Source: Psammoneis japonica (Eukaryota). From it: a stretch of 64,000 nt of DNA. Positions 5,651 through 64,000 of the stretch are shown in pieces. The DNA is taken from contig QPGO01000052.1 in the NCBI GenBank assembly GCA_008632985.1, positions 124,001-188,000 on the forward strand, given 5' to 3'. Under the pieces are notes generated by a model that was not told where the DNA came from, searched no databases, and saw only the letters and a list, made by a program, of their open reading frames with translations. A program made the position numbers and the translations under genes. The stretch's first letter is position 1. Every line of letters begins with the position of its first letter.

Positions 5651-5660
5651 ACAACCGAGT

Positions 5661-6285: not shown

Positions 6286-6359
6286 CGCCTAAAACTACCC
6301 CGATCCAATGGCTCCGTCAACCCTGGGGCCCAAAAAAGTATCTACACTTTATCCTACAT

Positions 6360-31460: not shown

Positions 31461-33432
31461 CACATTGAATGGAGACCAGTGCATCATTTGAGGTGTGCAT
31501 CAAGTTGAAGTTGCCAAAGACAAGTGGGAGGAAGGTCATGCCAAGCTTCTTCCAGGCAACAAAGCTGCAGAGCAAACAGCCCTTGGTGTTGGTGCCTGCA
31601 GCAGCAGCCGGTGGAGGTGCAGAACTTGAGGCACAAGACAACTTCATGCATGGAGCATCACAAACACATCATCCCAACATGCAAAAGATTGGAAATGCAC
31701 CAGGATGGAAGAAGAGAAAAAAGTCTCAACATGGACTGTTGTGGTGTCACAACCATCTGAGATTGCCTTGATCACAGCTTTCTAAAGATTGGCATGGTTT
31801 GGACAAATTGAAGAAGCTTCAGGAGCAGCCACAAAGAGAGAGCTTTGTCCACAATCAATCAAATCTGTTCAAGATCTTCAGTCAGTGCAGCTTTGGCGGT
31901 GACAAGGTCATGAACGCTGAGTTGTCACCAGCAGATGCAGCCCATTGCCAGTTGCAAGCAAGTGAGCTGCTGCAAAACTTTGAGAAACAAGGCTGATGAG
32001 CTTTTGCAAGGACAAGCAACGTGCACATTTGAAATCACACAAACAAGCTGTGCAAACATGGTGTGTGACTTTGACTCCAACAAATTGTTCACAGAGACCA
32101 CGCCAGCTTTCATGGCTCCGATTGCAGCAGATTTGATTGACCTTGAGTTCTTCCACAAGAGAAATGTGAGATGTCCAAAATGGTGTCAAGCTGACAACTG
32201 TTAAAACAGAGGCTCTTCCATGAGTTAAACATGGTTGTTGCTGACATGGTTTTTGGACCAGCAGATGGCAATGAGGACTGCCCTCCTCCCTGCAACAGCT
32301 CATCAACATGCCACACCATTTGTTGTTCCACACCTTGCTTCCAGGCTGTGGCTTTGTCAAGCAGCAGCTGCTTTTGCTCTGTTTCAAAGCTGCAAACTGT
32401 TTTGTGGTGTGTGATGGAATGATGAGTCTGCCCTCAAACTTGCAAGTCCATCCTCTGAACCAGGTTTGACAGGTGATGCAGCAAAAAGCTTCCAAAGAGA
32501 CAGCTTGCCCCACTTGCAGCAGCATGTGAGTGAAGCTGTGGGCAGAGAGCAGGGCACAGTTCCCAGCAGCTGGTGAGAGTGAGGAGCTGACAAAAGCTTG
32601 TGGCTGGCTGGGAGTGTCATGAGAGGGCCCATGGAAGAAATCTGGAGTGCTGCAAAAGGAGGCATCAGCAACAGCCAGATGGAGAGCTTGGCAAGCCCAA
32701 CAAAGCTGTGCAAAGGGCAGAGGTCACCAAAAGTGACAGCTCAGAGGAGCTCATGTTCAGAGAATTCTTAAGTTGCTGCTGTCAGATGATGGTGAGGGTG
32801 CACTCATTGAGTGTGTCACAGCAGGCCAGGAGGAGATGCCTCTTCCCTCATCTCAGTTTCTGTGTTGCATCTGAGTTCTGTTCAGGGTGCATTTTAAACA
32901 TCCCTTCCACTGAACCACTGTTTGTGTGAACCACAGCAACATTTTTTTATTTTGTCCATGGTGTGCTCCTGCATGGTGGTTGCACAGAGCCCATGTGCTT
33001 TTTCTCAACACCAGGAGTGCCCCCATGGCATTTTGTCTCTTGTTCAGATGAGTCAACACATGTTTGTCAAACACAAAAATGTCACAAGGACAGCCTGAGG
33101 ACATTTGAAGACAACTGGCTGTGTTTCTTGAAACAACAAAGATCAAACACAACAAAGTTCCAGCCTGCAGAGTCGCAAGTCAAATGCCAAGTGTGATTCA
33201 TGGATGATGCTTCCAGTCATCAATCTCTGCTTCTGGAAGAAATGTCCATTGAGTCTTCTGGCAACAGCAACCAGAGTGACACACAAAACCGTCAGGTCAA
33301 AATGCAATCTCCAGTCAATTGTGATTGTCATCCTCTGCACTGCATTGTGATGACATCCCATCCTGCAGTGATCTTCTGTGCTGCAATCCTGTCCTTGCAG
33401 TTGATCTTTTGTGTCAAATCCTCATCCAGCAT

Positions 33433-36400
33433 CATGTCTGATTCTGATGCCACTGCTCCCAGAAAGGATCTGGAAATGTTCAAGAAGTTTGCCGAGGCTT
33501 TTGCAGCCATGCAAGCATCCAACGCACATCCACCCATCCCAACCCCCATCCATGGTGAATTGCATCCCTCTTGTGGCATGTGCCTTGGTGGGGCTCTTCT
33601 CTTGATGACACTCTCAGCATTGCCATCCAAAGGCTGTCAAGTCCATCAAGCAATCCCTTTGTGAACAACTTGCTTCAGCAACTGTCTCAAAGTTCATCAG
33701 TCAAATCAAGCTGTCCAACGGTCCAAGCACCAAACTGGACAAGAAAGACTTTGTCAAAACCATCCAAGACCTTGTCAGTTGCACGGGCAAGAAATTTTCT
33801 GCCATTGAAAGAGGACGTCTGTCAGCAAGGTTGTTTGTCTGTTAGACTCCCTTCATGCCATCTCTGTCAGCAACCTTCTTGAGAAGGAGTGCAAGTCTTG
33901 TAATGCTGCTTCAGGTGACAAAGGCTGTGACAATTACAAGAAGGACAATGTCGGTCTCTCTCAACTCCAAGTCAAGTCTCAAATCACGGAAACGTCCTGC
34001 AAGAAGATCAAAGTCAAGTTCAACCACATCAAGGACTTCAAGGATCTTCCAGGGTCAGTGTTGTTTGTGATGGCTCTGGACACTTGCAATGCAAGTGCTC
34101 TTGTTGATGTCAAGTCCACCAAGGAGAAGCTCAAGGCACTGTTGCTCAAGTTCCACCCTGGCAAGGATTGCACTGAGCTTGTGGCCAAAGCTCTTCCTCT
34201 GGCCAAGATTGTGAAGATGGACTGTGTGCTGCTGGTTGACACAGGTTCTGCCATTTTAACCAAAGCATCCAAGACTTCATCCAAGTTCTTTAATCATCAA
34301 GCATTCTTGAAGATGGATGATGTTAAGAAGATGGAACACAAAAGTGTTGTCTCTGCAACCTGGCTAAAGTGCCAAACCACTCTGACTGCACAATTTCAGG
34401 GCCTGTTGGCCACATTGGCTGGATTGCCATGACCCATGACAAGCTCATCAGTGATGAAGACTGGCCTGCCTCAACAGCTAAACTCCCCGAGTCGAGCAAC
34501 ACTTCCATCAAGGACAAGCACTCACCAAGCATGCGTGTTCTGCATGTGAGAAAGAGCACATGGCAGTGCAGAGGGTGAAAGCAGATGAGTCCAAGAACAA
34601 CACAAAGAAGACAGACAGGGGCTCACCATCTCCAAAACCAAAACCTTCCAAGCCCACCTGGCATTTCGTGAACAAGGAACCCACCCTCACTGATGACAAA
34701 GGCATGCTCTGGAAATTGTGTGACAAGTGCATCAACAAGGAAACCAGTGAGATGGGCATGTGACAAGGCCATTCAAGTGCTGAACACACCAGCAAATTTT
34801 CACCCACCTCCAGTGCCGCTGCTTCAGCAAATCTCTCTGCTGCAAATGATCCTTCTGTGGGTGTCCCATTTGGTCCTCCTGAGCAAACAACGGCTCCACC
34901 GATGGACAAGGACTCTGACGCCAATGAAGAACTTGTCCATTGTGGCATGTGGTGTGCTCCTGTTGACAATGCTGTGGGCAGCCCTCCTGTGGTCATTGCT
35001 TCTGCATCTTTCACTCCTGCTCCAATGGCCAAGAGGGAAACTGCCATGGCCACACCTGCTCCAATCTTGGTCAAGACAGTTGACCCCAAAGACACTGACA
35101 ATTTCCACAAGCTCTCCAATGCTCTGTCCTCTTTTAACTTGGAACTGCCAGCTCTTGAGTTGTTTTCAGCCTGCACACTGCATGAGAGATCAAGAATCCA
35201 GTTGTGTTTCATGACGCCACATCAAGTCACATGGAAGGACTGTCAGACAGCATGTTGGCTGACCTTGTGCATGAAGCAAGCAACCCAGCATCTTTTAATG
35301 ACACCTGTGAGAACTCACCTCCAAGCATCCACCATCACTGGTTTGACTTCTGTGATTCTGTGACCCTGAAACCACTTCTGTCATCAATGACTTGCCGGGC
35401 CCCTGCAGATCCCAGACAATCCACTCACGCTCAGAGGCATGGACTGCTTTCAAACTGCCTCCACCGGACACACCTGATGTCCACATTGAAGTTCCCAATG
35501 CACCTGATGACCCTCCAGTCCTCTGCCTGTGCTCCTGCAGAACTGCCACCAGGGTTAAAACCACCACCTGCCGTCACTCTGCCTGAACCTGCTCCTCCAA
35601 CAATGCCAACAACACCGGAATCTCCTCCTGCCACTTCTCCAGAGTTAGCTCCTCCACTGTGCTGTTCAAGTTGATCAAACAAGGGTCAGTTGCTGTCTGA
35701 AAGGTTCATGGACAAAGTCTTCTTTGCTCCAGCAAACTCAAAAGATGAGCTGCTTGGGACTGCAGCTCAGTTGGTGCATCTTGCTGCTCTGGACACCTGC
35801 ATTGATTTGCAGACCTGAAACTTTGATGATCCCAGGGTTTGCGCAAAGGGTTTGTGCAACTGCAAAGAAACACAAGGACCCTGATGTGCCATCCCTGCAT
35901 GAAGCTGTGTGCAGCCACAGGGCCAACAAATGGGTCCATGAAGATTGAGATGAATGCGCTGCTCCACTCGTGCATGGGAAATGGTGCCAAGGACTGATGA
36001 CATGAATGCATTGCCTGGCACATGGGCTTTCTGGCTTAAAAGACTTTCTGATGGTGCACCCTTGAAGCACAAAGCCCAGTGTTGTGTTCATGGTGATTTG
36101 CAGATGTGCAAGGTGTTGATTGTTTTAAGACCTGTGCGTCATGCAATGGTCATTAATTTGGCTTCTCCTCACAATGGTGCTCAAAGAAGGTTGGACCACT
36201 CATCAAATTGACTGTGTTTCCAAGCTGATGTCAAGGAGAAAGTCTGTGTGGAGCCTCCTGAGAGTTTTCAGCAGAAATCAGGTGCTGACTTGGCACCAAA
36301 ATTGTTGAAAGACCTGCATGGACTCTGCCAGTCTCCCAAGTGCTTCTGTGAAAAGCTGCACCATGGATTGATTGAACAAGGATGGATTCAGTCTGCTGTT

Positions 36401-37540
36401 GACCCTTGCATTTGTTTCAAGAAGGGCATGTTGTGCATGGCATGTGTTGACAATGACTTGTTCACCGGAGTGTCATCTGTAGAACTTGAAGCTGAGATTG
36501 CCAAATTGGGTGTTTCCAATGATGAGCAATGCCATGCATTCAACCTGCATGATGCAGGCAAAGTCGGCAACTTTTTTGGCATCAAGAAGATCCAGAAACT
36601 CAAGGATGGCTGCTTTCTGCCAACCCAACCTGGCCCAATTGAGAAAGTGCTGCATGCCACCCAGACAGAAAACTGCAACAGAGCTCCTGCTCCCACACTT
36701 CCTGCACCTGCTGGCAGTGGTTCTGAAGGCCCATCATTCGATGAACCTTGTGGCAACTGTCGGCCCATGGTCGGCATGTTGACACATCTGGCATCCAACA
36801 GCCACCTGGACATTGCCTGTACCACCCACCAAGTTGCTCAGTTCTCCTTTGCTCCCAAGGCCTCCCATGCTGTTGAAATCAAGCACATTCTTTGGCACTT
36901 GAAGGACACTGCTGACAAGGGTCTCATCCGAGCACCCACTGCAGATCATTGGCTTGATTGTCATGTTGTTGCTGATTTTGCAGGACTCTTTGGCATTGAA
37001 GATGGACAAAACCACACTTCTGTCAAGTCACACACCAGTTGTGTTGTTTGTTGTGGCAGATGTCCCATCATCTGGGTGTCCAAGCTGCAGACCCTGGCGG
37101 CACTTTCTGGGATGGAAGCCAAGCATGTTGCACTCTCCCAAGCAATGTGCGATCTCACCCCCCTTTGCAAGATCTTGAAGGAAATTAACACACACATCTT
37201 TGCACAACCGGATGCTCACAACAAGGCAGCTGCCCACTCCGAGGCCTTCCTGCAGGCCAACGACAGCACCGATTCCTCACCCATCAATGCTGCCAACCTG
37301 TCAGCATCTGTTGTGCATGAAGACAATGCTGCTTGCCCCCAGCTTGCTTGCATGCCTAAATTGTCCCCATGAACCAAGCCCATCGGCATTCCATGCCACT
37401 GGTTTTGCACTGGGGTTGAGGCTTTGGAGATCAAGATTGAGCCTGTCAGCTCTGCTGCACAGCTTGTCTGCCATTTTGCTAAAGGATTGGCCACTGATGT
37501 GTTCTGAATTGGTCGTAAAGCCCTCATGGGCTGGTGGCTG
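33433..37540 (+). mobile_element. Decayed Ty1/Copia (CoDi-like) element: gag, Pro-rich linker, RT and RNase H; protease and integrase not seen; no LTR recognised
   Basis: Gag knuckle WKLCDKC...HSSAEH (about 34710-34790); KDPDVPSLHEA; MNALPGTWAF.LKRLSDG...KHKAQCCVHGDLQ; LHGLCQSP; QSAVDPCI; ACVDNDL; CHVVADFAG; WVSKLQTLAALSGMEAKHVALSQAM; VHEDNAAC; ends RKALMGW. Confidence 0.93.
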
Positions 37541-37549
37541 TCACCGCGT

Positions 37550-40500
37550 CTAGAATGCTGCTGTCTTAAGTCTCTCCTTACAGTTTTATGCAGTGGTTTG
37601 CAAAATGGTTTTATTGCGCTCTGTGCAACTGATTATGAAAAACCTGACTGCCCGTTTCATTTTGTTTTCTTCGCCGTTGCTTTCTTGATGGACGTCTTGT
37701 TTCGGCGCTTAAGAGTCCCTCGATCCTTCTCTTCAAGCCTGACGAAGTGAGTGCAAGGCTCAGTGTCTACGAGGACACCATGCTTCGCAAAATATGCCAC
37801 TGCATGCTTGGCCATCACGTTTTTGACCCTGTCCATGCAATCCACGATGACAAGATGTACGCCTTCTTCTTTCAGAAGCAACGCCATTTTACTTCGAGAT
37901 TCTTCACGGCACAACAGTTGCGCCTCAAATCCTTTGCTCGCACAAAAAGGGACGCATTTCTTGGACGCTACCCATTGGCCTAATTCCTTTCGAATCGCCG
38001 CTTTGGACATCTTTAATCCCCTTCTCACGTTTTTGTCGTGAACCATGTTAAGGAAGATAAGACGAAGCATGTCCGGAATGCAATGGCCTGCCGGTGCAAG
38101 CCCTTTGTCGAAGCTCAATCCGGTTTTTGAAGCCTCTGCTTGAGTCATCAACCTAGCGCCTGCACCACTTTTCCATCTCTTGACACGATGTCCTTTTTCC
38201 CAAGGTTTGGCAGCCTTTTCTACAGCTTGCTCAGAGTTCCCGGTCGCAGCAGCAGGTGGAGCCCCTAAATCTAGGCTGTCCAAATCGTCGCCTTCACTCA
38301 CAGCTGCTTCGGTGTCTTCTGTCATGGCATCAGGCACCCCCCCCAATGACAGAGCCACCCAAGTCACTGGCACCTCCGCAGCCACCGGCGGCAATGAAAC
38401 GCGTGGGTGCACCGGCATTGGTTTCTTCTGCTTCCTCTTCTTCATCAGAGTCACAAAGAGCAAGCTGCAAGTCACCCTCGCCAGAAGATCCATTGTAGTC
38501 TCTGTCTCTGTTCAGCAAACGAGACGACATGGTAGAAACTGAATGATTCGAGCAAGTGGAAGTGGACTTGCTTGTTGGATCCGTTGACCCATTGGTCTCA
38601 GTCGCATCAACGGTTGTGTTCGAAGCCAGGCCCAGCCCATCCGACGCTCCTTGAATGGGATGGCCACGCCACCCACCAGCTTCACGGTCACGGGCTGTCG
38701 TGGGAAGCATGGGTGCCTTGGCTGCTTCTTCCTCTTCTTCAACAGAGTCGCAAGCATCAAGCTGCCTCTCAACCTCGCCAGAAGATCTGTTTTCTGCACC
38801 TGCATTCAATGAAATGAGATGATGCCGGCAAGAGGCAGTGTCAACAACAATGAAATCACACAGGCAGTGATGAAAAGGGAATCATCATCTTCTTGCCTGA
38901 AATTCGGTTGTGGCTTGATTCTTTGGACGAAGCGGTGGGAGCACCAAATGAGTCATTGGACAGGATGCCAGCGGCAGCAACAGGTGAAGATCCCAAAGGA
39001 AAGTCACCCAAGGTGTCAGATTCACATTCTCCATCGTTGCCAAAAGATGCATTTTCAGAGTCTGTGTTCAATGAGTGAGATGACACCGATGAGAAGGGGG
39101 TCGCATCAACATTGACAGCAGACAACAGAAGCAACAAGCAAAACGTGGGCAACTGTCCCACCTGCAGTTTGTTTGCGTTTTCTGGGAGAGGGCTCGTTTG
39201 GCAAGCCACCGGTTTCACTTCCTGCATTGGCAGCATGTGCCAATCCGCCGGAAGAATCGCCCATTTGGATTGATGACGCAGCAACAACAGGTTCTGTAAC
39301 TTTGGGCGTGGGATTTTCATCGTCTTCTTGGTTTGCTTCTTTGTCAGGCTCTTGCATGGGGAATGAATCCATTTCATCAAATCTCATTGTGGTCTTGTGA
39401 CAATCATCTCTGCGCTTGAAATTCGGCATTTCCAAATCCATGGTAGAAACGGATGCGTCCGGAGAAGCAGCCTTTTGTTTCCCCGTGTGCTCAGTTGATC
39501 CCGATTTCAAACTTACATCAGGCATCCTGGCTTGGATCTTCCCAAGTTGACTCGTGACAGCGGGTGCGTCCAAGACAACAACACGGGCAGAGCGTGCGTC
39601 CACACGAAACGAACAAGATGTGAAAGTGGTGAGAATAAATTCCTCGTCAAGAACAAGGCACAGCGAAACAAACCAAACCATTTTCCTGCCTGTGATGTTC
39701 AAGGCATGCTCTTTCGACAGACCGGCCATTTTTGGAGTTCCATTTGCAGCTGAAGGTGAGGCTTGGGCAGCAACATGTGCACCTTCATTGGTGGCAGTGT
39801 TCTCGTTCTCGGAACGACCGCACCGTTCACCACCACATTGCAAAGTTCTCTGTTTCTTGGGAGCTGCAGCTTTGCCGGTTGGGACAAGTGGAGGAGCTGG
39901 AACTGTGTTTCTTTGCGAACGACTCATTTTGAATTCACAATTGCTCACAGACGTCTTGGCTTGGTCCGTCCCACTGGGACTTGTGTTCTTCTTGGCAGTC
40001 ACACCATCAATTACATCGCACTCTTCAGGAATGCTCGGAAGGGGATTGAGTGCACAATGTGGTTTCTTCTTCTTGACTCTGGCTTTTATTTGCACTCTAG
40101 ACTCAGGCTTGCTTGCAGCAGAAGTGCTCACAGCAGCGGCGACGGGGTTGCCGGAATGAGCGCAGTGGACACGCAGACGATTCGCACCATCACAAAGGAC
40201 CCCCTTCTCGTTTGGAGCAACAGCTTCCTGTCCTGTGGGAATCGGCGGCTTTGCTGTGCCAGCTGCAGCAGCAGCAGCGCGAAGCTCACTTGTTTTCTCA
40301 GAAGCCATGTTCTGACGCAATCTTCGACAGTCCGCATCACGGGCAGCAGTTGCTTGTGGTGACAGGGTGCCAGACCGTTTCAAATGAGCGCCACTGCTGA
40401 GTTTTTGAGATCCAGTGTCAGTCAGTGTTGCGCCAAAAGACATGGTCGTCTTCTTGCGAGCACCAACAGCTTTGATTGTTCTCACGGCTAAGTCGGGGGC

Positions 40501-41530
40501 TTGGCATTCACGGCGACCATCGGAAGTGATCCTGCAATGTCCTTCCCAAGGGCTCCATTGCCACTTCTGTTTGCTGTCAGGTGTCTTGGCTTTGCCAGCA
40601 CCACGTGGACTCTTCTTCTTGCTGGCAGCAGCGCCTTGTGCATTTCCTGCATTCACATCATGATTGTTTTGATGGTTGCCCTGCTTNNNNNNNNNNNNNN
40701 NNNNNNNNNNNNNNNNNNNNNNNNNNNNNNNNNNNNNNNNNNNNNNNNNNNNNNNNNNNNNNNNNNNNNNNNNNNNNNNNNNNNNNNNNNNNNNNNNNNN
40801 NNNNNNNNNNNNNNNNNNNNNNNNNNNNNNNNNNNNNNNNNNNNNNNNNNNNNNNNNNNNNNNNNNNNNNNNNNNNNNNNNNNNNNNNNNNNNNNNNNNN
40901 NNNNNNNNNNNNNNNNNNNNNNNNNNNNNNNNNNNNNNNNNNNNNNNNNNNNNGAAGCTCCATCTGTGCCCACATTCAACAAATGAGATGAAATTGACAA
41001 GAATGAGTTTCATGATGACAATCATCATCATGCAGGAAACAAACAAAGCGAGTCACGATCTCACCTGGACCTCGTTGGCGCTTCTTCACGGAAGATTCTT
41101 CTGGGAAGCCGCCAGCTTTGGCGCTTCTGTTCAAAACTTGTGGCTTTCCAGCGGCAAACTCACTCGTTCGTTTCACATGCGCTGCACGTGAAGATGGCAT
41201 TTGCTTGACAGCATGCGATTTGCTTGTCCCATTTGTGGCAGCAGCACGGCTTTGACGGTCTTGAGTGTGGGACAATGTCGAGTCGGGCAAAGGAATGTTG
41301 TTGGCAAAATGGTGCCAGGGAGACAGCATCTTTTCATTTGATGGCTTCGCTTCAACAAACAGCTTCCACCTTTTGTCCCAATTCTGGTCATTGTCTCGTT
41401 TGCCCTTCCTCCGTTTAGACTTTCCATTGTGCGAATCCCGAGTGCGCTCTTCACAGAGGGCATTTGTTGATGGTGAATCCTCCCATGGTGAGTCCTCATC
41501 CAATGACGACGGTGCCGTGAATGTCGCCAT
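37550..41530 (-). pseudogene. Inverted, mutated and 3'-truncated paralog 'B' of gene A
   Basis: MATFTAPSSLDEDSP...NALCEE..DSH..KRRKGKRD matches A MPRFTAPSSSDEDSP.ANPLYEK..DSH.SKRRRGKRD. GHCIPD, KGFEAQ, EGVHLVI and HAVAYFAKHGVLVDT match the A C-terminal domain. Upstream sequence is also homologous; intron-2 splice sites are destroyed. Confidence 0.88.
40687..40953. other. Assembly gap (N run)
   Basis: Continuous Ns. Confidence 1.
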
Positions 41531-43601
41531 GCTTGATTTTAATGGCCTGCAAGACAACCTTCAAGCTTCACTTGCGGGAAAGACGAAAACAAAGCATGTT
41601 TGTCAGAGAGAGACAGAGATGGGGAGACTTCCACAAAGAGGAGAACGGACAAATGCAACAGCGACACAAAGAAATTCTTGCCTCTCGCCAGACGGAAAGG
41701 ACAACGGTTTTTCAAGTCGATTTCAAACTCGACACTGCCGGTAAATCCGAGCTTTGATTTGTCGTTTGACACCTGCCAGAGCGTCTCTCAACGTTGCTGC
41801 AAACAGAAGTGACACACGAGACGCACGACAAGGAAATCGAACGCAACAACAATCAGAATGGAACTGCACAAGACCAACACTCACCGCTTGGAAGCCAACA
41901 AAGAAAAACAATCGACCAGCAACAAAACGGCTGAATTTGGAAATTTGAAAATTGTGAGCCAAGTCGCGGACGGCCCAACGGATTTCTCGCTCTGGCGAGA
42001 ATCTCGTGGTAGTAAAATCAACGTAGGTTTTTCGTAGCCACGAATTTCGAGCAAACTGAGCGCGCGGTGCGCGCGTGGCCGACCGAATGTTCGCCCTGAA
42101 TGAATCGATGTTGTGTTTGTCGCTGTTGACATCCTCATCAACCATCAACCACCGCATCGTCGATCACAGCACCAATTATTCTCGTTAGTTCGAAAGTCGG
42201 AAATTCTTCAATGTACGTATGGTCGAATCGACTTGACCATACCGCCAGTTTTGAAAGCATACAAAAGAGTACTTGAGCAACGGGAACATTCACCATACAA
42301 TGTACCGGTAGGCCCTACCTGTACAAGGGCTTATTGAGCATCCCAAACAACGAAACGCTTTCGAGCACAGTTCAGTGTGGAGTGCAGTGTGGGGCAAGTT
42401 TCGTAGACAAGATGATACCTCTCGAGTTTGATTATTTGATGGATGGATTGGATGATGACTGCCGGCCGTGTTGCGTAACAACAAAAAGAGTTGAAGTAGC
42501 TACCCACCAGAACGGAAAAGCGACGCGCAACTTGCCTGCGCGTCATTATCGCTCCTGAGCAGGTCGAGCATCCCAGTTTGAAGAATCGTCTCGTACTGAA
42601 TTAAAACGGGTGTACTGTATGGAGCACCCGACATCAAGGAAACTAAAATTCACCGCTTCGGACGCACAGGTCGAGCTGGAAAAGAGGGCCAAGGTTTGTT
42701 GGTGCTACTACCCTTTGAAGAGACCTTTTTTTAAGACAGCGAGGACGGCGAAGACGCTTGGAATCGATACTGTACCCGTCGAGTTTACCGGTGATGAGAG
42801 TTCTGGCTTGCTCGCAGAAAGATACTGCGCAAGTCCTCCTCCGTGCGAAGACTCCTTACGGTGTTCTGCATCCTTAGTATTGCAATCCCTTGGAGCCCGC
42901 TGTCAGATCGTTTGAAAGGTCATAGTGGGCACTGAGATCTGTGTTGCCTTTTTCCAATGAATTTGGACTCATGAAAGACGGTGCGGCACTGATGCTTTCT
43001 CTAATGGATCAAAGAACCAATTCCCACTGTTTCGAAACTCGGAAATTCTTCACCGATTTTCCTGAATGAGCCAAGGCGTTTGAGAGGAGTCTTCCAAAAA
43101 TTTCAAATTCCTGTTTCGACAGCTTCATGACACTAGTCTGTATGAATCTCGAACGTCCATGCACCATGCGTAAAGAGTTGTGTCTGCTTCATGTGTTTCC
43201 TTCGTTGTGGGCTTTCCAAGACCCCCTGCATTGGCAAAGAAAACCAGCAAGTCTCTGTCTTTGTGAAGCTTTTGCAAGTTGGGTAAGTTTTGGTGCAGTC
43301 CAAAGGTGTTGCATCCGGCTTGGTTACCTGCCGGTATTTCACATTGAAAGGAGTCTAGCTAGCTAGAGAGAGGGTCCTACAATCACACTGCAGGCTCGCA
43401 TTGCATTTTTAATTTGCTATGGCCGTGTGGTGCCGTGTGGTGGGTCTGTCTGTGTAGTACCGTATGTAGGTCTGTGCTGGAACGTGGAGCCAGACAGACC
43501 GTCACTGTTTTATGTTGTACTAAAAGCTGAATAAAAATATTTCGAATTTAACGCCTGCCGTACGACCACTGAAACAGCGAGCACCACTTTTAGCTTTCCC
43601 G

Positions 43602-45021
43602 TCAATGCAAATCGGGTCGAGATTGGGAACGTAGCGCAAGGTCAAGGATCACATGAAAAGACAGCATCCGCCACTGTAGCATCAGACAGCATACCGTTGC
43701 CATGACCGGCGGACAAGTGAAAGAACGAGGAATGCCACCTTTGATCGGAGATGCAGTGGCTTTTGTCATGAGGGGAATTGGCCCGAAATCTATTGGCTTT
43801 TCCAGGTGCAGCATTGACCAGCACATTCTGAAAATTGCTTGCACGTCCTTGATGTGTGGGGTGGGGAGAGAGCGCAGATTGCTTTGCCACAATGTGCTCG
43901 AGACAGATGTCGTCGAACGGCGCTTGGCTTCTGACCACAAGACACTGGAGACTCTGCGAGAGGAAGTTGTTTCAAAGCGGTGAACAACACTGGCATTGTC
44001 ATTGAACAATGAACTGTTGAGAATGCGTCTCCGATTGACATGCCATGCCGCTTGACATGTGACGTAGACCGGAGTCGACTGCAGCTGCCGGCACTCATCA
44101 TCATGAGCTGTCAGTCTGACTCTGAACCAGAACCGTCCCTAACTGTTTGCTTAATTGTAACCACTGAATGCTGATTTCGAAGGTAGAGCAGCATGTCAGC
44201 AGCAGCAAAGACGCACTTCAAGTGCTTGTCCCACACTTTGGACTGGCTCGGCACTTGGATGCAGGCATGCTGTCGTCCAGCATTTCTCCGCGCCCAAGAG
44301 CGCAGAGACATCTGAGGAGAATGAACTCCTGATTGCATGCAAGCTTTGTTAAAGTTGACCGATTCGACAGCTCCAATGAATCAAACTTTTTTGTCGGGCA
44401 AAGGGTGATCAGGATGGTGTGAAAAAACTTGAAGATTTTCTCGAGCGCTTCTTTCATTTCGCTCGTCCAATCATCCTGCGAGTGAGTGGGCAGAACCGTT
44501 GAAACAACCGCAATGTCACCGTCCTCTTTGTATCCAGCAAAGGTCAGTGAAGAACAATCGTGAATCCTTGATGACGTGATGTGAGTGTTGTCTCCGAAGA
44601 GTTGGTCCGGTGTTTCCTTGTTTCGGATGAAATGACGCACCGGATCCATCTTGGAATTGGGAGGAGTGATTTTATGATGGCTGGGTTGTTTAATTGGTTT
44701 GACAGTGCTATTATGACGTTCAAAACGGACTGCATGTATTGCATGTTAGGTTGTTTGTCTGTTGCATGCCCCGCAGCACAGCGTTGCATCACAACCTCTC
44801 AACGCGACAGTGCTGCCAAAGCAACTGACGCATGTTGCACATTTGTCGGCACAACCCAGCTCATAACAGCTTTCAGTTGAAGTATATATTGCATTCTCAC
44901 AACTTGTACACGTCTTCTCCGACGAATAAAACGATCCGAGCTCACATTCAACAGTCACCCCGTTTGACCGAGACGAACCACCATGCACTCTCCGAGCCCT
45001 TTTCTTCGCTGACATTGACAT
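43602..45021 (-). pseudogene. Fragmented gene remnant with an N-terminal RING-like Cys cluster
   Basis: CTSC...ELGCADKCATCVSC...CCGAC in 44746-45051, followed by broken ORFs 44218-44649, 44111-44338 and 43602-44009; partly TA-poor. Confidence 0.4.
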
Positions 45022-45390
45022 CCTGTGAAAAATTTGAAGATACAGTGTCACTTGAGTGTAGAAGAAGAAACGGTTCCTTTAGTATGACTGTGATGAGCCT
45101 TGTAGTTATTGTGAAATAAACGTCCGCAAGACGGCGCTCGTCATGGCGTGCGTTTTTTTTGATGTTTTTCAAAAAGTGCTTTTTTACAGTACCCCGACGA
45201 AGTCCAGACGGAACCGCTGCGCGCGGCGCTAGTTTCCAGATGAAAAGGCAGGCGGGCGGTATCTTTTCCTTGCTTTTTTTTGTTGTCCTTTTGTCTTTTG
45301 TCTCTTGCTTTTCTGCATCATTGAGCGTTGCGGGTTTGTATGTGACGGTGGCTTCTGCATTCTGCATGCAACTCAAAATTATTGGTGAAA

Positions 45391-46970
45391 ATGGCGCCTA
45401 ACAACGACAAGGATGAGGATGAAATGAAAGGCGATCCGAACGGAGCGACGAAAACAAAAGATCCGACCGAAAAAAGCACTACCAGTAGCAGCAAATCCTC
45501 GCTCATTTTGTGCGGTGTGGTGGCGTTGCTCGCTTTCGTCGCTGGTCTCTGGACACCCTCCTTCTTGGCCAACAAGGGTGCTTCAGAGAGTAGGAAGCTC
45601 AATTCCATATCACCTAGTGTCTGTGACGAAGAAGCATTGTCTCACTTTTTGCATCAAGAGGCGGTGGCGGGGATGCACGTGATTTGCGCAGAAAAGTCTG
45701 AAAATGACTCGCTGAAACTCAAGCTTTTTGCAGGAGCTCAGGAAACGACTGCGCCGCTGACTGTCGCGTCCAATAACAGCTGGACTGGAATACGTGATGC
45801 ACTCGAGAACAACTTGCATCTGAAACCACAGGACGAACTACACCAGCCGTGGGCAATCTTTTCATCCGTCGGGGAAAGACTAGTGGACGAGGACGTTAGT
45901 GATGACCGGCCAGACGTTGTCGACACGCTCGTCTCTTCTGGTTTGGTGTTGCTCTTTGAAGGCGGCCAGTGGATTTGGCCCGGCGTCAGGTACGTGGCAT
46001 GTACAGATTAGGATGCTCCACTTGTGAGAAGGGTTCTGGGTTCGTCCTGCTTCTGTGCGATCACTGGTGCTCTTCAAATCTTGCGAGTTATACCAGAAAC
46101 TAACAGCGTTTCTAAATATCGAACAGAGTGGGATTTAAGCGTACTATCGATCTATATTCCATCATGCCGGGATCGAAGCCATCGATAGACCTACCGGAGA
46201 AAACGACCACAACCTTGGAAACCCTCTCACTCAAACCCCTTGTGTTCTCCGTAGAGAACTTCTTAACTGAGGAAGAATGCGACCGTGTTCAAGCAGCGGC
46301 TCTTCCTACTATGCGGCATTCGTCGGTCTCGTTCACAGACGCTGACCGAGGAAAAGATGCTAGTGAATTTCGCACGTCAAGCAACACCTTTATCAGTGCA
46401 ACGGATGACATGTTGAAGGATCTCGACTACCGCACAGCGAGCTTGACACGAGTGCCAAGAAGTCACCAAGAATCAGTGCAGGTACTTCGATACGAAAAGA
46501 CGGAACATTATGTGGCGCATCATGACTACTTCAACCCAATGTTCTATTCGAAGGATAAGGCCACTTTGAGACTGATTGAGAATGGAAGGAAGAACCGCAT
46601 GAGTACAGTCTTTTGGTATTTGAGTGATGTTGCTAAAGGTGGCGAGACTGTCTTTCCCCGCTGGAACGGTGGGCCGCAACCGAGTGACTTTCACGACTGC
46701 ACGGTTGGCCTCAAGGTCAAACCGCAGCGCGGAAAGGTTGTCATATTTTACAGTCTTACTGCTGATGGGGAGATGGACCCATATTCACTTCATGGAGCAT
46801 GCCCGGTCGAGGAGGGCGTCAAGTGGGGCGCAAACAAATGGTAAGAAATTACTATCGTGGCTTCGAACTCTACTGAAAGACGCGTTATTCTCCGACTTAC
46901 ACGCCCTAATGTTGCTTTCATTGCTCGTAGGTGTTGGAATTTGCCTATGAAATATATTTATGATGCATGA
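45391..46970 (+). CDS. P4H: Prolyl 4-hydroxylase alpha-like 2OG-Fe(II) dioxygenase, type II membrane anchored (paralog 1)
   Basis: Exons 45391-45989, 46127-46840 and 46931-46970. N-terminal TM segment, ETLSLKPLVF, RTSS, QVLRY, HHD, GGETVFP, SLHGACPV and ANKW motifs. Confidence 0.93.
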
Positions 46971-48771: not shown

Positions 48772-49331
48772 GGACAGTGCGTTCTACATGGCCTAGAAAG
48801 GTTTTCTCGCTACGGTAGCGATGATAAAGTCTGACAGTAGGGCACTTTAGGAACCCATATTTCCCAGCTGGGGTCATTTTAAAATACTAATATATGTGGT
48901 CTCTCTCTTCGCTGTACCATTTTCGGTCTAGGGCCCAGTTTGTACCGAGTCTACTGCGATTATTTTGGTTATCTCTCTCGTCCTCATCACAGCTACCGTA
49001 CTCTCTACTCTAGCTCTAGAGCTACAATTGCTGGGGTAGCTACTTAGGCTTACTCTAGAGAGTAGACTCTCTAGCAACTTCGAGGTAGTAGAGTAGACTC
49101 TCTCTACTACTAGAGTAGCACCGGTGCTGTCCACTCTGAACTCTGCGCGACGACAACCCCGAACCCGGAAACCGCCACGCTCCACGATTGATGTTAGCGA
49201 TGCGGCGATGAGCGATGATCAGATGGCAAACTACTTCTTCTGTACAGTGGATAGTAGCAGCGATAGCAGCAGATGGTTATGCATGTCTTTTCAGACAGCG
49301 CACAACGCAACAGTCGTAATCAGCTAGCATA

Positions 49332-50908
49332 ATGGCGGCTAGTGACAAGAAGACAGAGACCGGGAAGATCATGAGCAAGAGAGTGTCACAGACAAAGCCC
49401 CCTTTCTTTGTTTCGGTTTCGATTGCGCTGCTGTCGTTGAGCGCTGGGATTTTGACGCCGCCCCTAGTTTCTTATTTCGACATTTCTCATCCTTTGGGGG
49501 GAGAAAATGCGATACAGAGATGGATTTCTCAATTTTCTACGCCACAACCGCACCCTTGTTCCGAGGAAGCATTGTCTCACTTTTTACATGAAGAGTCGGT
49601 GGCAGGTATGCACGTGATCTGCGCAGAAAAGTCTTCTGACAATAACTCGCTGAAGCTCATACTATTTGCTGGAGCAAAGGAAACGACTGCGCCGCAGGAG
49701 TTCACATCCAATAACAGCTGGGCTGGAATACGCGATGCACTCGAGAGCAATTTACATCTAAAACCACAGGACGAACTTCATCAGCCATGGGCGATCTTTT
49801 CGTCTGTCGGAGAAAGACTAGTTGACGAAGATACTAGTGATGACCGGCCAGATGTAAGAGACACGCTCGTCTCCTCTGGTTTAGTGTTACTTTTTGAAGG
49901 CGGCCAGTGGCTTTGGCCCGGCGTCAGGTACGCGACGTGCACTGGTCAGGTTCTTCGATATGGGCGTGCCTTTTTTGTGCTGGACCCACGCTCACTTGTA
50001 AACCTTGTCACCAACGATGCGTTTGACTCCCAGAGTAGGATTCATGCGCTCTGTTGAGCTGTACTCTATAATGCCGGGAAATTCAAATCTTAGTTTGTCT
50101 GAGAAGAGAAGGACAGTGGTGTTGGAAACTCTTTCTCTTAAACCTCTTGTATTGTCAGTGGAGGGTTTCTTGTCGCCTTTTGAATGCGACCATGTTAGAA
50201 CTGTCGCAGAACCCATGATGGAATATTCCCCAGTTGTTCTTATGGACAAGGATAGGGGAAAGGAAGCGAGTGAATGGAGGACAAGCCAGACGGCATTCGT
50301 CGCCGGTCAAGATGAAGTGTTTGTAGATCTTGAACACCGAACCGCAAGTTTGACGCGTATACCAGTGAACCACCAAGGTAAGTGCTAGTACGTGCACCAA
50401 CGCAGACTAACATTGGGGAAATCGATGCAGGCATTGAAATACTATGTTAGGGATGCCGACCCGGATGACTCACAAGCTTCGTGTTCTGAACTTATTGCAA
50501 TTTATCAAAGAACATTTGCAAGTTCTTCGCTACGGCGTCAACGAGCACTATGCCGCACACACCGACTACTTCGATCCGGCTTACTACCGGGAAGACCCCG
50601 ACACACTCGAACTGATTCAGAACGGTAGGCGACAGAGACTGGCGACTGTGTTTTGGTATCTATCGAATGTGGAAGATGGAGGGGAGACTGCCTTTCCGTA
50701 CGCCGTTGGTCACGAGACCGAGGACGAGTGCGAAGATGGTCTAAGAGTGAAACCACAGAGGGGAAAAGTCATTATTTTCTATAGCTTAACGGCTGGTGGT
50801 GAGATGGACATACTCTCAACGCATGCCGCCTGTCCCGTCAAGGCTGGCCTGAAGAATGCGGCGAATAAATGGGTTTGGAATGGGGCCTTTTCTGAGGATG
50901 AAATGTGA
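49332..50908 (+). CDS. P4H: Prolyl 4-hydroxylase alpha-like dioxygenase (paralog 2)
   Basis: Exons 49332-49927, 50034-50377 and 50511-50908; QVLRY, HTD, GGETAFP, STHAACPV and ANKWVWN motifs. Confidence 0.93.
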
Positions 50909-51564: not shown

Positions 51565-53625
51565 ATGAGCCTTCGTCATGGTGCTGTCACGGCATTTGCA
51601 CGAAGCGTACGGTGCACGCATCGTGCGATGGTGCGTTCGAGAAAAAGGCACCGACGTTGTGGTCGACTCGATGGAGTCCATGTACCGGTACACAGCACAC
51701 ACCTGCCGCCATCTCTACCAGTTCATTGCATACAAGCATATTCCACATCAGGTGAAGAACGAGAATCATCCAGCGCCTGCGATATTTCGCGCAAACATAT
51801 TGACACAAGAGAGTACGCGGAGGAGATTGTCCACTTGTTCAACTCGGGCGGCCGCGATGCAGGACGCAAGGCCGAGAGGCTCTTGATGGAAATGGAAAAA
51901 GCATCGGAAAATAACAAAGATGTGGAGCCTCCGCCAACTTCTTTGTACAACAAAGTGATTTCAATGTACGGAAGGACTTCAAGAGGTCACGATGCCGAAC
52001 GGATACTCAGACATATGTTTTCCAGGCTTGACACAACGCCTGGGAGTACCAGAAATGATTGGGCGCAACCAAACTCTGTCAGCTTCAATGCGTGCATATC
52101 CGCATGGGCAGCTTCTCGAGGTGGGGCAATGCGTGCGGAAACACTGCTTCGTGAAATGATTGAACGTCACGACATGGGTGACAATAATTTGACCCCGGAT
52201 TCACACTCGTTCAACGCAGTGATTGCTTCCTACGTGCGTGGAGAACGCCAACATGATCGACTTGGAGTTATCATGCAACTCATGATTCAGTGTTCAGAGA
52301 GACCTGACTCAAATGTAAAAGTTGACACGGTCACTCTTTCCAATGTCATTAGGCTGTTAGCAAAGAGCCGCAGTAAGGGTGCTGCACGGCAGGCCTTGGC
52401 AATTCTTGAGAGAATGGAAGTTATGTACGAACGAGGAAACGAGACTGTAAAACCTGATGGTATCGCCTACTCGTCTGCTATTACAGCGCTAGCCAAGAGT
52501 GGCGAAGCGGGTGCAGCCGACAAAGCGCTTCAGCTCTTCCAACGTATGGAGCTTCAATACAACAAATCGGGTGATTTTGGTGTGAAACCAGACACTGTGA
52601 CGTTCAATGCTGTCCTTGATGCTTTTGCTAACAGCAGAGAACGAGGGAGCGCCAATAAAGCTCAGAGTTTGCTGCAACTTATGCATCATCGATACAAAGC
52701 AGGCAACGCCGATGTTAGGCCAAACACTGTCAGTTATGCCACCGTCATGTTGGCGTGGAAGAACAGTCAAGATGTAAATGCTGCCGATAAAGCTGAGGCA
52801 CTGCTACGAAAATTGCAAGAGTTACACCGAGCGGGAGATGAGTGCATGGAGGTGAATACTATTTGTTTCTCCACTGTCATTTCTGCCTATTCAAAAGTCG
52901 GGACACGGCACGCTGCCGAACGTGCAGAAGCGCTTTTGAACGAAATGAACGAGCTTCATGCATCTGGACTCGATAGCGTTCATCCGAATGCAGTCACGTA
53001 CACTTCCGTTGTCGAGGCTTGGGCTACAACTGGGGATCCTCAAGCGGTGACCAGAGCAGAAGACATCATTCGGAAGATGGAGTTGGCAAGTGCCAACAAT
53101 GCAGCTTTGGAACCTACCACATTACCTTCAACACATTGATAAAAGCGATCGAAAAGAGTCACATAGAGGACAAGGCGCGAAAGGCTGAGAAGATCTTAAT
53201 CACCATGCGAGCGTTGAACGATGCCGGCAAGAGCCGCGTGAAGCCAACTGTTCGCACCTATAACGCCGTTTGCAGGCTTGCGCGACTACAGAAGGTAGCT
53301 TAGAGGTCAAGGAGAACGCACTTGGGCTAGTACTGAACTTATTGCAAGAATTACGAGGAAGAGATTGCGATGTACAGCCCGATCTCTACACATACCCCAC
53401 TGCTCTTAAGGCATGTGGTAACTTGGCGGAAACAGCAACTCTTTCCGGAAAGTATTTGATTTCTGCTGCATAGATGGCATGGTGAATTTGATGGCCCTCA
53501 ACCATGTCCGACGAGTTGCACCTGGTTACCTACAAAAGTTGGTGGGAGCCCCGGCCTCGGACATACGGCTAGAACACGTCCCACCAACGTGGACTCGAAG
53601 GGTTCGAAGGAAGCGGGAGAAATGA
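51565..53625 (+). CDS. Pentatricopeptide repeat (PPR) protein, probably organelle-targeted
   Basis: Repeated PN/PD.VSFNA.I.AWA...A.RAE.LL..M units; ends VPPTWTRRVRRKREK*. Three apparent 1-bp frame breaks near 53120, 53270 and 53460. Confidence 0.9.
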
Positions 53626-60947: not shown

Positions 60948-61029
60948 TCGAATGCTTTGGGCGATTGTGACATACACTGGAAGTGCTTGCTGCTACCAGT
61001 AAGGCTTGTATCTTGCATCTTCTAAAAAA

Positions 61030-63900
61030 TCGAACACCGACCATGGCCACACCCCTGAGCAGGGGCTTTCTGGCCTGGTGAGATCTGATTGGTTCGGAGC
61101 TCACTGTGCACGCTTCTCGCTTCAAAACGTTGTCACCTCATGTTGGGATCGATTTTCACTGACAACCATTGTGCACCAGGCAAAAGGCTTTCCTCAGAGG
61201 CCCCTGGCTGCACTGTGCAAGCAGTCCTTCTTGCACTCCCAAATCTGGCTTGGCTCTCACAGGACCCCATTTTTCCTTTGGCCCTGGCACAAAAAAGGGA
61301 GGGGGCAAAGAACAGCAGCCCACACAGCTTTGCCTGTGCACAGCCATGTGTGCCATTTTCACACTTTGCTGCCACAGACAGGTGCTGAGCCACAAGTCAT
61401 GGGCAGTGCTGCTGATGATGCATGGGCACTGGTGCATCCCACACAGTGGCAGTGAGAAGCAGGCTGTTGCGAACAACTCAACAAATGTCGCAACATTTTT
61501 TTTGTGAGATTTTGTGCTCAGCCAGGCACTTCTCTTGTGAGCACTCTGTTTGGCTCTGCTTGTGCTTTGCACAACAAGAGCTCTGCAGTGTTTCTTGTTG
61601 TGTGCTGCCATAAAATGATGTGACAAGGTGCCAGCACGGAGAAAGACACCCTCTTCAGAGCTGCCTGCCTGATGCAGGGAGAGTGAGCAAGAGAGAAACC
61701 TGCTTTTTGGCTCTCTGTCTGGGGGTGCCCCACTTGGGAAACCCACTCAGGAAAAATTTCAAGCAAAGCAACAAACAGAGGCAATCTGCTGGCAGGCAGA
61801 AAACCGCCATTTGACCAGGTGATCAAAGTGCGGCATGGCTTTGTTGCCCGTGCACAACCTCCCTCCCTTTGGACTGCACTTTTCTGAGTCCCGCCTGGTG
61901 CTGTTGAATGATGTGTGGGTGCTCTGGTGTGCGCTGGATTTGTGCACAGCAGCTGTGAAGCAACAAAAACAACTCAACAAATCTCATGAAATTTTTAGAT
62001 GCCAAGATTTCATGTTGTTTCAGACATGCTTCTCTTGTGACCAGCACTCTGTTTGCTCTGCTTGTTTTTTGAGCAAGAGGAAAGAGGAGTGCTGGCGGCA
62101 CAGAGAAAGTCAGCCTTCAGAGCTGCCTGTTGCATGGAGAGAAAGAAAAAAAAGAGAAAAATTTGCTCTTTTGCTCTCTGCCCAGATGTCCCACCCAGGA
62201 GAAGAGTTTGTCCTGCTCCTGAGACAAAAAAGCAACGGCAAATGCAGAGACAACCTCCTGCTGCAATTTTGCAAAGCCAGCTGAAGTTGTGATCTGTCAC
62301 ACACACACACACACACACTTTTGAAACAAATTGCTGTGTCAATTGTCATGGTTGCTTTGGCTGTTTTCTGATGACACATGGCTCATCCAAATTTCATTGT
62401 GAGCTGGATCTGCCGGAGTCAAGTCATCATTGAATGACATCATCTGCACGTGATTGCTGTGCAAACATGAAAGCTCAAGCCCTTGTTGGCTCTTCTATGC
62501 ACTTGATTGAGCACTTCTTTGGAAGTTGGTTTGAGGCAAAATGATGTGTTTGCCTGTGGAAGCAGTCATCTGATTTGCTGGCCACAATGGAGAAACACCA
62601 TTTGATGACCAGCAAGCTTGCTTCTTGCGTGTGCGTCAATTGCATGCACAGGCCCAGTGCAGCAGTTGACATTTGTGCTCTTCTTTTTGATTGTTTGTGT
62701 TGTTCAAGCAGGCGCCATGGGCAAGGGCAAGCCTCGGTGCACATGACAGAAGGCAGCCTTTTTTCACAAAGGTCGCAGGGTGCTTCAAACAGCTTGACAG
62801 AGGGCAGCCTTTTTCACGAAGGTCGCAAGGTGCTTCAGACAGCTTGGGTGGCTCTTTGAGCATGTCATGTCTGAACCCCCATGGACCCAACAACACCTGT
62901 GAGTTGTGGGCCCATTTCAATGTGTTTCGTTTGCAATTTGATCATCTTGCTGAGTCACAACTTGTGTCTCACACTCTTTTTTCCAGATGTTGACCACACA
63001 TTTGCAGATGAATGTGCATGGCCAATGGTGAAAAGCAGGAGCCAAACATTTGTGCAACTCTCATCTCTGTTTGAGCACCACAGCCATGTGCATTCTCAAG
63101 ATTGTTGCTCATTCAAGCCACCCAAATGTCTGGACCACACTTGTTTTTTCTCTGACTTTTCCTGCTTGCAGCCAGCTTGTAAGACTGCAAGACCCACAAG
63201 CACAATCAGGACAGAATGTTTTGTGTGCTTTGAGTGCCCACGCACAACTGCGCCATTGGCCACAAGTCTCGGACAAGCAGAAATCACCTGTCTTCTCAAG
63301 TCCTCACCCAAGAACATGACAACAGTTTTCCAAGTCACAAGTCAGTCAATGTGCCAGGATTCTTGTTTGAATCATCAGGCTGTTTTGAGTCAAAACAGTT
63401 AAAGACAGAAGAAATGCCAGGACATTTCAACAGCATTTGTTGTTCTGCAGGAATGGCATTCTGTTTCTTGGGGTCATGGTTTGTGTCATGCACCCTCAGA
63501 GCCTTTTGCATTGATTTCAGTCCTCTGCTTGAATCGCGTTGACACTCCCAAGATTCTGTCATCCATGCTGCCAAGAACCAAGCGAGACAAAGAATCACAT
63601 TTGCATTCAGGATTTGTGGAGCTCAACAAGACCTGCCAATTGTCTTCAAACGAAGAACTCTGTCACAGGTTTGACAAAATGTTGTGATGACAATCAAGAT
63701 GTGGCACGCTGTGTTGCTGCCTCAAGCCCACCGGTTGAATGGGAGTTCAAGTGGATGATTGGCTCAAAGTCTCCAACATTCCAATGTCAGACGCTCTCCC
63801 ATGAAACAGCTGCTCAGGTTTCTCAAACTCTGGGATCTTGAATGAAGCGAATCTTCCTCCAAGCTTGAAGTCGACGGCGAGCGACGGAAGCTTTGAACTC
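61030..63900. other. Second TpA/CpG-depleted domain (unidentified decayed repeat or transposon) with internal duplications
   Basis: About five TA dinucleotides in about 2.9 kb. Duplicated blocks at 61474/61970, a 51-bp tandem pair at 62744-62845, and (CA)10 at about 62298-62318. Confidence 0.85.
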
Positions 63901-64000
63901 TACGTGCAAGCTAAGCTCCTCCAAGCATCGATCACTCAAGTCATTCGGGTTTCTCCATAGCACGAACTGCATCGACATGCATCTCGCAGTTTCATCGAGT

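Follow-up and report, generated by a model that had tools for sequence, protein, structure and literature searches.

The 64,000-nucleotide stretch of Psammoneis japonica DNA analysed here (contig QPGO01000052.1, positions 124,001 to 188,000; hereafter the window) contains a block of about 34 kb (8.2-42.0 kb) in which the TpA dinucleotide is nearly gone, having been turned into TG or CA, and two related genes. Gene A (90-4,025, plus strand) has normal composition and four GT-AG introns; its TpA-eroded paralog, gene B (37,657-41,530, minus strand, with ATG at 41,530 and TGA at 37,659-37,657), is located within the block. We consider A and B to be ancient paralogs, of which gene B was eroded at TpA together with the rest of the block yet had its frame broken by an indel, and gene A decayed in the ordinary way. 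Taken as a whole, this reading has in our estimate a probability of about 0.7. It supposes that the whole block underwent near-saturating transitions at TpA (a TA to TG change on one strand is TA to CA when read on the other) by a regional and sharply bordered process.

Composition was described by dinucleotide odds ratios (rho) in 1-kb steps along the window. The GC content is about 0.48 across the window (0.45-0.53 depending on position) and is unchanged in the block. The core of the block (8,201-37,500) is nearly free of TpA and CpG and is rich in TpG and CpA: between 8,001 and 37,000, rho is 0.01-0.25 for TpA, 0.00-0.33 for CpG and mostly 1.5-2.4 for TpG and CpA. Over 8,230-37,000, TA was observed 129 times against 1,933 expected (rho 0.067) and CG 192 times against 1,666 expected (rho 0.115). 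The density of pyrimidine-purine (YR) steps is the same in the core (24.27 per 100 bp) and in the flanks (24.22 per 100 bp), while the share of TA and CG among them drops from 40% to 4.5% in the core (TA alone accounts for 1.8%), and TG with CA make up 95%. With YR steps equally numerous in core and flanks, transitions alone account for the change of the lost TA and CG into TG and CA.

The borders of TpA and CpG depletion do not coincide. CpG depletion stops at the 3' end of gene B, at about 37.5 kb. TpA depletion extends to position 42,010 and ends there within 270 bp of continuous sequence: there is no TA over 41,743-42,009, and 9-13 per 250 bp beyond the border. The region upstream of gene B (41,531-42,009) is almost TpA-free, with just two TpA at 41,540 and 41,742. 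In the five 1-kb steps over gene B rho is 0.05-0.28 for TA, 1.31-1.62 for TG, 1.38-1.87 for CA and 0.55-0.92 for CG; TA makes up 3.0% of its YR steps compared with 14.5% in gene A and 16.1% in the flanks. The difference in borders makes the TpA process separable from CpG decay. In the transposon-derived core, CpG is depleted with a matching excess of TpG and CpA, as in methylation-driven decay by deamination of 5-methylcytosine (5mC); gene B has this pattern weakly. Such decay leaves the loss of TpA unexplained, and its border at about 37.5 kb differs from that of TpA at 42.0 kb; this difference speaks against a TpA process that simply tracks 5mC.

The left edge of the block is hidden by an assembly gap (7,274-8,200, 927 N). 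Tandem or direct repeats with units 71-96% identical flank this gap (5,659-7,273 and 8,209-9,197). The position of the left border on a run of N, together with a further gap inside gene B (40,687-40,953, 267 N), could be taken to mean that the TpA- and CpG-poor block is an error of assembly, polishing or base-calling, or contaminant DNA. We find this barely conceivable, as all 30 bins of 33,000-40,686 are covered by contigs of run X1, at a word depth of about 100-400, and these show the same composition, gene B is homologous to gene A and has introns in common with it, and the right border is in continuous sequence.

Comparison of A and B with blastn gave five blocks in inverted orientation with 60-67% identity (E down to 2e-97). 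An initial annotation of this DNA had described B as an inverted paralog of A, and both these blocks and the common introns bear this out. The blocks cross introns 2, 3 and 4 of gene A, so the intron positions are common to the two genes and gene B is not a retrocopy; unlike a processed pseudogene, it keeps alignable introns at the positions of gene A introns 3 and 4 and a relic of intron 2. Upstream sequences are homologous as well (4-89 of gene A with 41,627-41,531 of gene B), and the order of repeat modules differs between the two. A codon-wise comparison gave dS of 0.67-1.0, with dN/dS of 0.16 in exon 1 and 0.22-0.65 across the C-terminal domain when taken in three pieces (0.46 for the whole), so the duplication is old and both copies were constrained for much of their history. 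By these measures A and B are ancient paralogs. The two genes point towards each other and stand on either side of the depleted core in the manner of an inverted duplication; the window begins at the 5' end of gene A.

TpA differences between the two genes have a strong direction. Among all aligned columns there are 68 sites with TA in A, at which gene B has TG (17), CA (15) or TA (9), and 19 sites with TA in B, at which gene A has TG (3) or CA (1). The asymmetry is therefore 32 against 4 (binomial p = 1.9e-6), and the one for CpG is weaker (45 against 25, p = 0.02). As TG and CA outcomes are balanced in gene B, there is no transcription-strand bias. About 80% of the TpA of gene B is gone, whereas its CpG has been reduced by only a fifth to a quarter, and the process would have removed TpA from exons, introns, untranslated region (UTR) and promoter alike.

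In the genetic code, transitions at TpA turn TAY codons into TGY or CAY, NTA into NTG or NCA, and TAA into TGA or CAA. Gene B would have been recoded from Tyr to Cys or His and from Ile (ATA) to Met or Thr. Its 1,095 codons include 2 for Tyr, 25 for Cys, 28 for His, 25 for Met and 21 for Ile, compared with 19, 14, 19, 12 and 40 among the 1,139 codons of gene A. The amino acid differences listed in the initial annotation are all present, both those explained by TAY to TGY or CAY (LYE/LCE, GYC/GHC, GVYL/GVHL, LYDSDEE/LCDSDEE) and those explained by CGG to CAG or TGG (DRNW/DQNW, KRRK/KRWK).

Splice signals bearing TA would have been rewritten by the same process, GTA donors into GCA or GTG and TAG acceptors into CAG or TGG. 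The four introns of gene A (584-667; 1,365-1,461; 2,038-2,139; 2,698-2,793), all with GT-AG splice strings, have the donors GTAAGC, GTAAGA, GTAAGA and GTAGAG and the acceptors TTTAG, AGTAG, AATAG and TACAG. In gene B, following its own order on the minus strand, intron 1 (40,964-41,064) has donor GTGAGA and acceptor CACAG, former intron 2 (39,601-39,689, 89 nt) has donor GCAGGA and TGTGG, lacking AG, in the acceptor position, intron 3 (39,062-39,161, homologous to gene A intron 4) has GTGGGA in place of GTAGAG and acceptor CACAG, and intron 4 (38,800-38,896, homologous to gene A intron 3) has donor GCAAGA, a GT to GC change, and acceptor TGCAG. No TA is left in these signals, two GT donors have become GC and one AG acceptor has become GG. 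At intron 2 the donor change from GGTAAGA (A, 1364) to GGCAGGA (B, 39,690-39,684) and the acceptor change from GTAG/AT to GTGG/AC (B, ~39,603-39,600) had been pointed out before and are seen in the sequence, as are TTATAG/GTAGAG against CTGCAG/GTGGGA and tctcccTAtc against tctcccCAtc. The earlier claim of TpA-directed change on the B side, splice signals included, agrees with the 32 to 4 asymmetry.

It is gene B whose composition is anomalous relative to the flanks; gene A is not anomalous (TA rho 0.45-0.57, with 0.5-1.0 in the flanks). Five distant homologs of the C-terminal domain (25-32% identity, E 1e-8 to 8e-4) came out of a full HMMER scan against 1.84 billion representatives. The initial annotation had looked to outgroups for the ancestral states, and this succeeds at one of the two sites: all five homologs have Tyr or Phe at GVYL/GVHL, so the His of gene B is derived, whereas at GYC/GHC they have Thr or Asn and are uninformative. 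Closer relatives did not turn up in the near-length range of a word-index search with the C-terminal 230 aa of gene B, nor did a metagenome scan with a protein of the A/B family find a closer ortholog or paralog. These data support gene B as the derived copy, with an excess of TpA-directed change that appears specific to its lineage and hits splice signals.

The reverse polarity, in which gene B keeps the ancestral TG and CA and gene A gained both its TpA and its in-frame TAG by C-to-T change at CpA/TpG resembling repeat-induced point mutation (RIP), has a very low probability. Change of the RIP type does create TA and TAG or TAA stops, such a TAG is present in gene A, and without close outgroups most sites are formally unpolarised. 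However, TA rho in gene A is not above that of the flanks while that of gene B matches the adjoining core, introns, UTR and promoter of gene B are depleted too, the aromatic residue at GVYL/GVHL is common to gene A and all five outgroups, and the other lesions of gene A are indels.

The coding frames of gene B have no stop in 1,095 codons, compared with 34 and 59 (93 in total) in the other two frames. Changes of TA to TG or CA are unable to create stops or frameshifts, so the frames of gene B stay open, and open frames expected from such stop-free erosion are no evidence of function. What breaks the frame is a single lesion, an indel in a run of eight G (38,337-38,344, minus strand), which shifts frame 2 to frame 3, with a TGA directly following in the old frame, and divides the N-terminal ~870 codons from the C-terminal domain. 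The length of the run is confirmed by an X1 contig (record 7, 38,241-38,605; depth ~99, no gaps, five other differences). The decisive lesion of this open reading frame (ORF) is an ordinary indel and not a TpA change, and the assertion that gene B was killed by TpA changes is not supported; in our judgement they did not do so alone. Former intron 2 is stop-free, lies within a 508-codon open frame (40,686-39,163) and fits the frame of the exons on both sides only when retained. Exon phases are preserved if introns 3 and 4 are spliced (the phase of intron 4 was checked by hand). Gene B also ends short of the last, C-terminal helix of its family. Gene B is probably non-functional now, having a fixed frameshift in its G8 run, an intron that lacks both GT and AG, and no last helix.

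One could suppose instead that gene B still works and has adapted to its TpA-hostile surroundings, its introns being exonised or using GC donors and its peptidase-like domain being kept. Besides its stop-free codons, gene B has two stretches of intron origin that are open and in frame, it has the family residue at all 15 columns invariant across seven family members (B included), Cys, His and Asp among them, CpG is largely retained, unlike in the adjoining junk, and dN/dS is below 1. We regard a working gene B as quite unlikely all the same: the G8 frameshift splits the gene and is present in a second contig or allele, the C-terminal helix is missing, open frames are what the erosion itself would leave, TA retained in the domain is mostly at synonymous positions, and dN/dS averages over a long common history.

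Gene A has lesions of another kind. An in-frame TAG (3,050-3,052) interrupts coding sequence homologous to an open frame of gene B, which passes this position without interruption and reads TGNSEQAVEKAAKP. A frameshift at ~3,350-3,356 (frame 2 to frame 1) lies within the conserved C-terminal domain, with WVSAKKFIPF in frame 2 and SKGFEAQ in frame 1, where gene B is continuous, and another at ~3,455-3,482 (frame 1 to frame 3) lies right before the HAVAYF motif, at a place which gene B likewise reads through. The family C-terminal helix (IF.ITRK) is retained. One more change of frame, at ~430-470, may be an unrecognised intron; none of the candidate donors and acceptors tried by hand restores the phase, and it was left out of the lesion count. 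Given the TAG and two frameshifts, gene A is no intact control. It reads as itself disabled, by ordinary decay (one nonsense codon and two frameshifts) outside the depleted block. The initial annotation had used it as the normal comparator, which stands for its composition and fails for its integrity.

That annotation took gene A for an intact reference and gene B for a copy inactivated by TpA changes, splice sites included, in a position-dependent rather than pairing-dependent manner. The 32 to 4 asymmetry, the two GT to GC donors and the AG to GG acceptor, the near erasure of Tyr from gene B and the sharp border at 42,010 all speak for it. As GC-AG introns can be spliced, former intron 2 reads through in frame, the lesion in the stop-free gene B is a homopolymer indel, gene A carries three lesions of its own and pairing-based models are left untouched by a pair of genes with 61-67% identity, we consider this version unlikely.

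Surviving TpA in the core (8,230-37,000) depends on the flanking bases. TTAA is not depleted, having the same density as in the flanks, and accounts for 37 of the 129 residual TA. Survival is about 0.35 in TTAG and CTAA and about 0-0.01 in ATAT, GTAT and ATAC, of which ATAT and GTAT are absent. An additive per-strand model fitted on the core reproduces all 16 NTAN counts, with a hazard of 2.66 for T as the 3' neighbour, 1.95 for C, 0.96 for G and 0.05 for A, and predicts that GTAAG donors become GCAAG. As a strand-specific directional rule it was rejected when applied to 31 A-to-B changes, which it fits worse than a 50:50 expectation (log-likelihood -31.2 against -21.5).

TpA is also retained in an island within the block (37,480-38,300, minus strand; about 22 TpA), which spans the C-terminal papain-fold domain of gene B and its 3' UTR. 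Selection at the protein level was considered as its cause and rejected, as most of the retained TA are in the UTR or in places where TA to TG is synonymous.

Several points weigh against the preferred combination of regional TpA erosion, an indel in gene B and ordinary decay of gene A. Polarity is given by composition and a single outgroup-informative residue. TpA-directed changes make up ~32 of ~620 A/B mismatches (~5%) at a divergence of 33-40%, and with so few of them either death or erosion may have come first in gene B. The core-fitted strand rule fails on the TG versus CA outcomes in gene B, and the ~800-bp island at the 3' end of this gene keeps near-normal TpA. Gene B is interrupted by the 267-N gap, the TAG and two frameshifts of gene A are read from the assembly sequence alone, and run X1 may be the assembly's own source and hence not fully independent.

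Regional hypermutation specific to TpA has been known only since 2026, from a single chlorarachniophyte, Bigelowiella natans (Mettrop et al., bioRxiv 10.64898/2026.01.13.699255). According to this preprint, two viral-derived regions in mutation-accumulation lines mutate ~1000-fold faster than the rest, and 230 of 231 mutations there are A-to-G or T-to-C changes, every one of them at TpA; the genome has 124 TpA-poor, CpA+TpG-rich clusters, and an ADAT2-like deaminase was proposed as the cause. The block described here carries the same signature in another lineage, far nearer saturation and joined by CpG loss in the core. Both systems are regional, consist of TpA to TpG/CpA transitions only and form TpA-poor, CpA+TpG-rich clusters; the target in B. 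natans is single-copy, and some host-type genes are among the depleted sequences both there and here. By the B. natans cluster criterion the core is clearly within and the TpG/CpA excess of gene B is borderline.

The differences are as follows. B. natans is a rhizarian, and the block belongs to a stramenopile, probably a diatom. TA rho is 0.45 in the region of nucleocytoplasmic large DNA virus (NCLDV) origin in B. natans and 0.067 in the core, which is near saturation. The B. natans regions contain viral genes, whereas the core is CpG-depleted too and has a retrotransposon remnant, not viral genes. De novo mutations were observed in B. natans, and here there is only a long-term sequence signature. 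In a word search of the preprint text we found no mention of CpG, introns or diatoms, and literature searches found no report of TpA-specific hypermutation in diatoms.

The one foreign or selfish element recognised in the core is a decayed copia-type reverse transcriptase remnant (36,212-37,369, plus strand; Pfam RVT_2, E = 3.6e-7, 30.5 bits, just below the cut-off of 31.6 bits), which adjoins the 3' end of gene B. It was the one credible domain match in a Pfam scan of 150 stop-to-stop ORFs (130 from the block up to 37,550 and 20 from a second depleted domain of the window); the longest chance ORF in the core has 300 codons. Gene B, with spliceosomal introns and homologs in diatoms, looks host-type.

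As was proposed for B. natans, the enzyme could be a DNA deaminase that edits adenine at TpA. Deamination of adenosine by ADAR/ADAT enzymes (A to I, read as G, with a preference for 5' U/T) would fit the TpA change, as A to G after 5' T. ADAR prefers a 3' G, unlike the flank pattern of the core, in which TTAA is spared and the 3' neighbour ranks T > C > G >> A.

Fungal RIP is alike in that dinucleotide-directed transitions degrade genomic regions and may spill into neighbouring or duplicated genes. It works in the opposite direction, from CpA/TpG to TpA, and results in AT-rich DNA and stops, whereas here TpA is depleted, GC stays at 0.45-0.53 and gene B has no in-frame stops. Fungal RIP also needs closely similar repeats, homology-dependent RIP requiring ~80% identity, and gene B is only 61-67% identical to its only visible paralog. 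A process based on homology pairing is thus not expected to pair A with B, and the fact that only one copy was hit, which the initial annotation had used as an argument against RIP-like pairing, is unable to discriminate between the models at such identity and a dS of about 0.8-1. A regional model is plausible on other grounds, namely the sharp borders, a gene that is otherwise unique and, in B. natans, a target reported to be single-copy, and targeting may be by chromatin or position.

We tentatively propose, at not quite even odds, that TpA-directed DNA editing as in the rhizarian alga also acts in stramenopiles of the diatom lineage. It would be saturated in sharply bounded blocks, independent of CpG methylation decay, and would disable genes in the way opposite to RIP, with frames left open and GTA donors, TAG acceptors, Tyr codons and probably TATA and poly-A signals erased; gene B would be the first intron-bearing cellular gene in which this was read base by base. 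The A/B pair illustrates the effect on a normal intron-bearing gene: open frames, Tyr codons gone, GT to GC donors and an AG to GG acceptor. If the process is real in a diatom-like stramenopile, it is either old within the stramenopile-alveolate-rhizarian (SAR) supergroup or has evolved more than once, and diatoms, for which genetics, methylomes and mutation-accumulation protocols exist, could serve in the search for the enzyme and the signal that directs it. For annotation it means that long open frames in such blocks are no evidence of function.

The A/B family appears to be diatom-restricted and to combine acidic repeat modules with a C-terminal domain predicted to have a papain-like Cys/His/Asp fold. 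Its one named homolog, from Amphora, is laid out likewise, with acidic repeats ahead of a papain-fold-like C-terminal domain. The domain model, built from a seven-sequence alignment, is of moderate quality (pLDDT 71.4). VIA-align matched it to staphopain C (Z 10.4, rmsd 3.0, 121 aligned residues) and to C39 peptidase domains (Z 9.5-9.9); the best Foldseek hit against PDB has an E-value of 0.18, with none at E <= 0.001. Cys54, His146 and Asp159 are invariant, in that order, in the seven aligned family sequences. The model thus resembles clan CA papain-fold cysteine peptidases (staphopain C47, C39) in predicted fold and in the order of Cys, His and Asp, and differs from them in lacking membership at the sequence level, its peptidase likeness being predicted only. 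Pfam gave no match at threshold for any exon of A and B (the best weak match for B is DUF7928, E = 0.045) or for the five homologs, one of which matches Peptidase_C39 at E = 0.18, and a search of PDB sequences with the profile of the domain alignment gave nothing at E <= 1.

Between the X1 contigs and the window there are 84 differences, and 73 of these are transitions. YR steps account for 25 of the 40 differences that were listed, among them two TA/CA sites and four double differences in which the window reads TG and the contig CA (33,477/8; 35,951/2; 38,313/4; 38,894/5). This would fit a continuing independent decay of ancestral CG or TA in separate alleles; the contigs may also be paralogs.

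Just outside the block, at 43,001-46,000, TpA rho is intermediate (0.28-0.43) and CpG is normal, which could be ordinary variation or else a fainter or more ancient footprint of the process seen in the block. The second domain depleted of both TpA and CpG (61,000-64,000; TA rho 0.01-0.07, CG rho 0.22-0.43) runs past the right end of the window.

Other genes are located between these regions. A pentatricopeptide repeat (PPR) gene (51,565-53,139) has its best named matches in diatoms at ~30% identity. A prolyl-hydroxylase-like ORF (46,116-46,844) has named matches in stramenopiles only, among the matches listed, and its best match overall is 77% identical; no Bigelowiella protein is among the matches listed for either of the two. 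Across both genes the best named matches come from diatoms, brown algae and oomycetes; along with the Amphora homolog of the A/B family, they are the grounds on which the source reads as a stramenopile, probably a diatom. The prolyl-hydroxylase-like ORF belongs to a duplicated two-gene unit (45,346-46,844 and 49,320-50,908) of normal composition, in which an ORF without assigned function is followed by a prolyl-4-hydroxylase-like 2-oxoglutarate (2OG) oxygenase, and the stretches 45,627-46,012 and 49,562-49,950 of the two copies are 84% identical.

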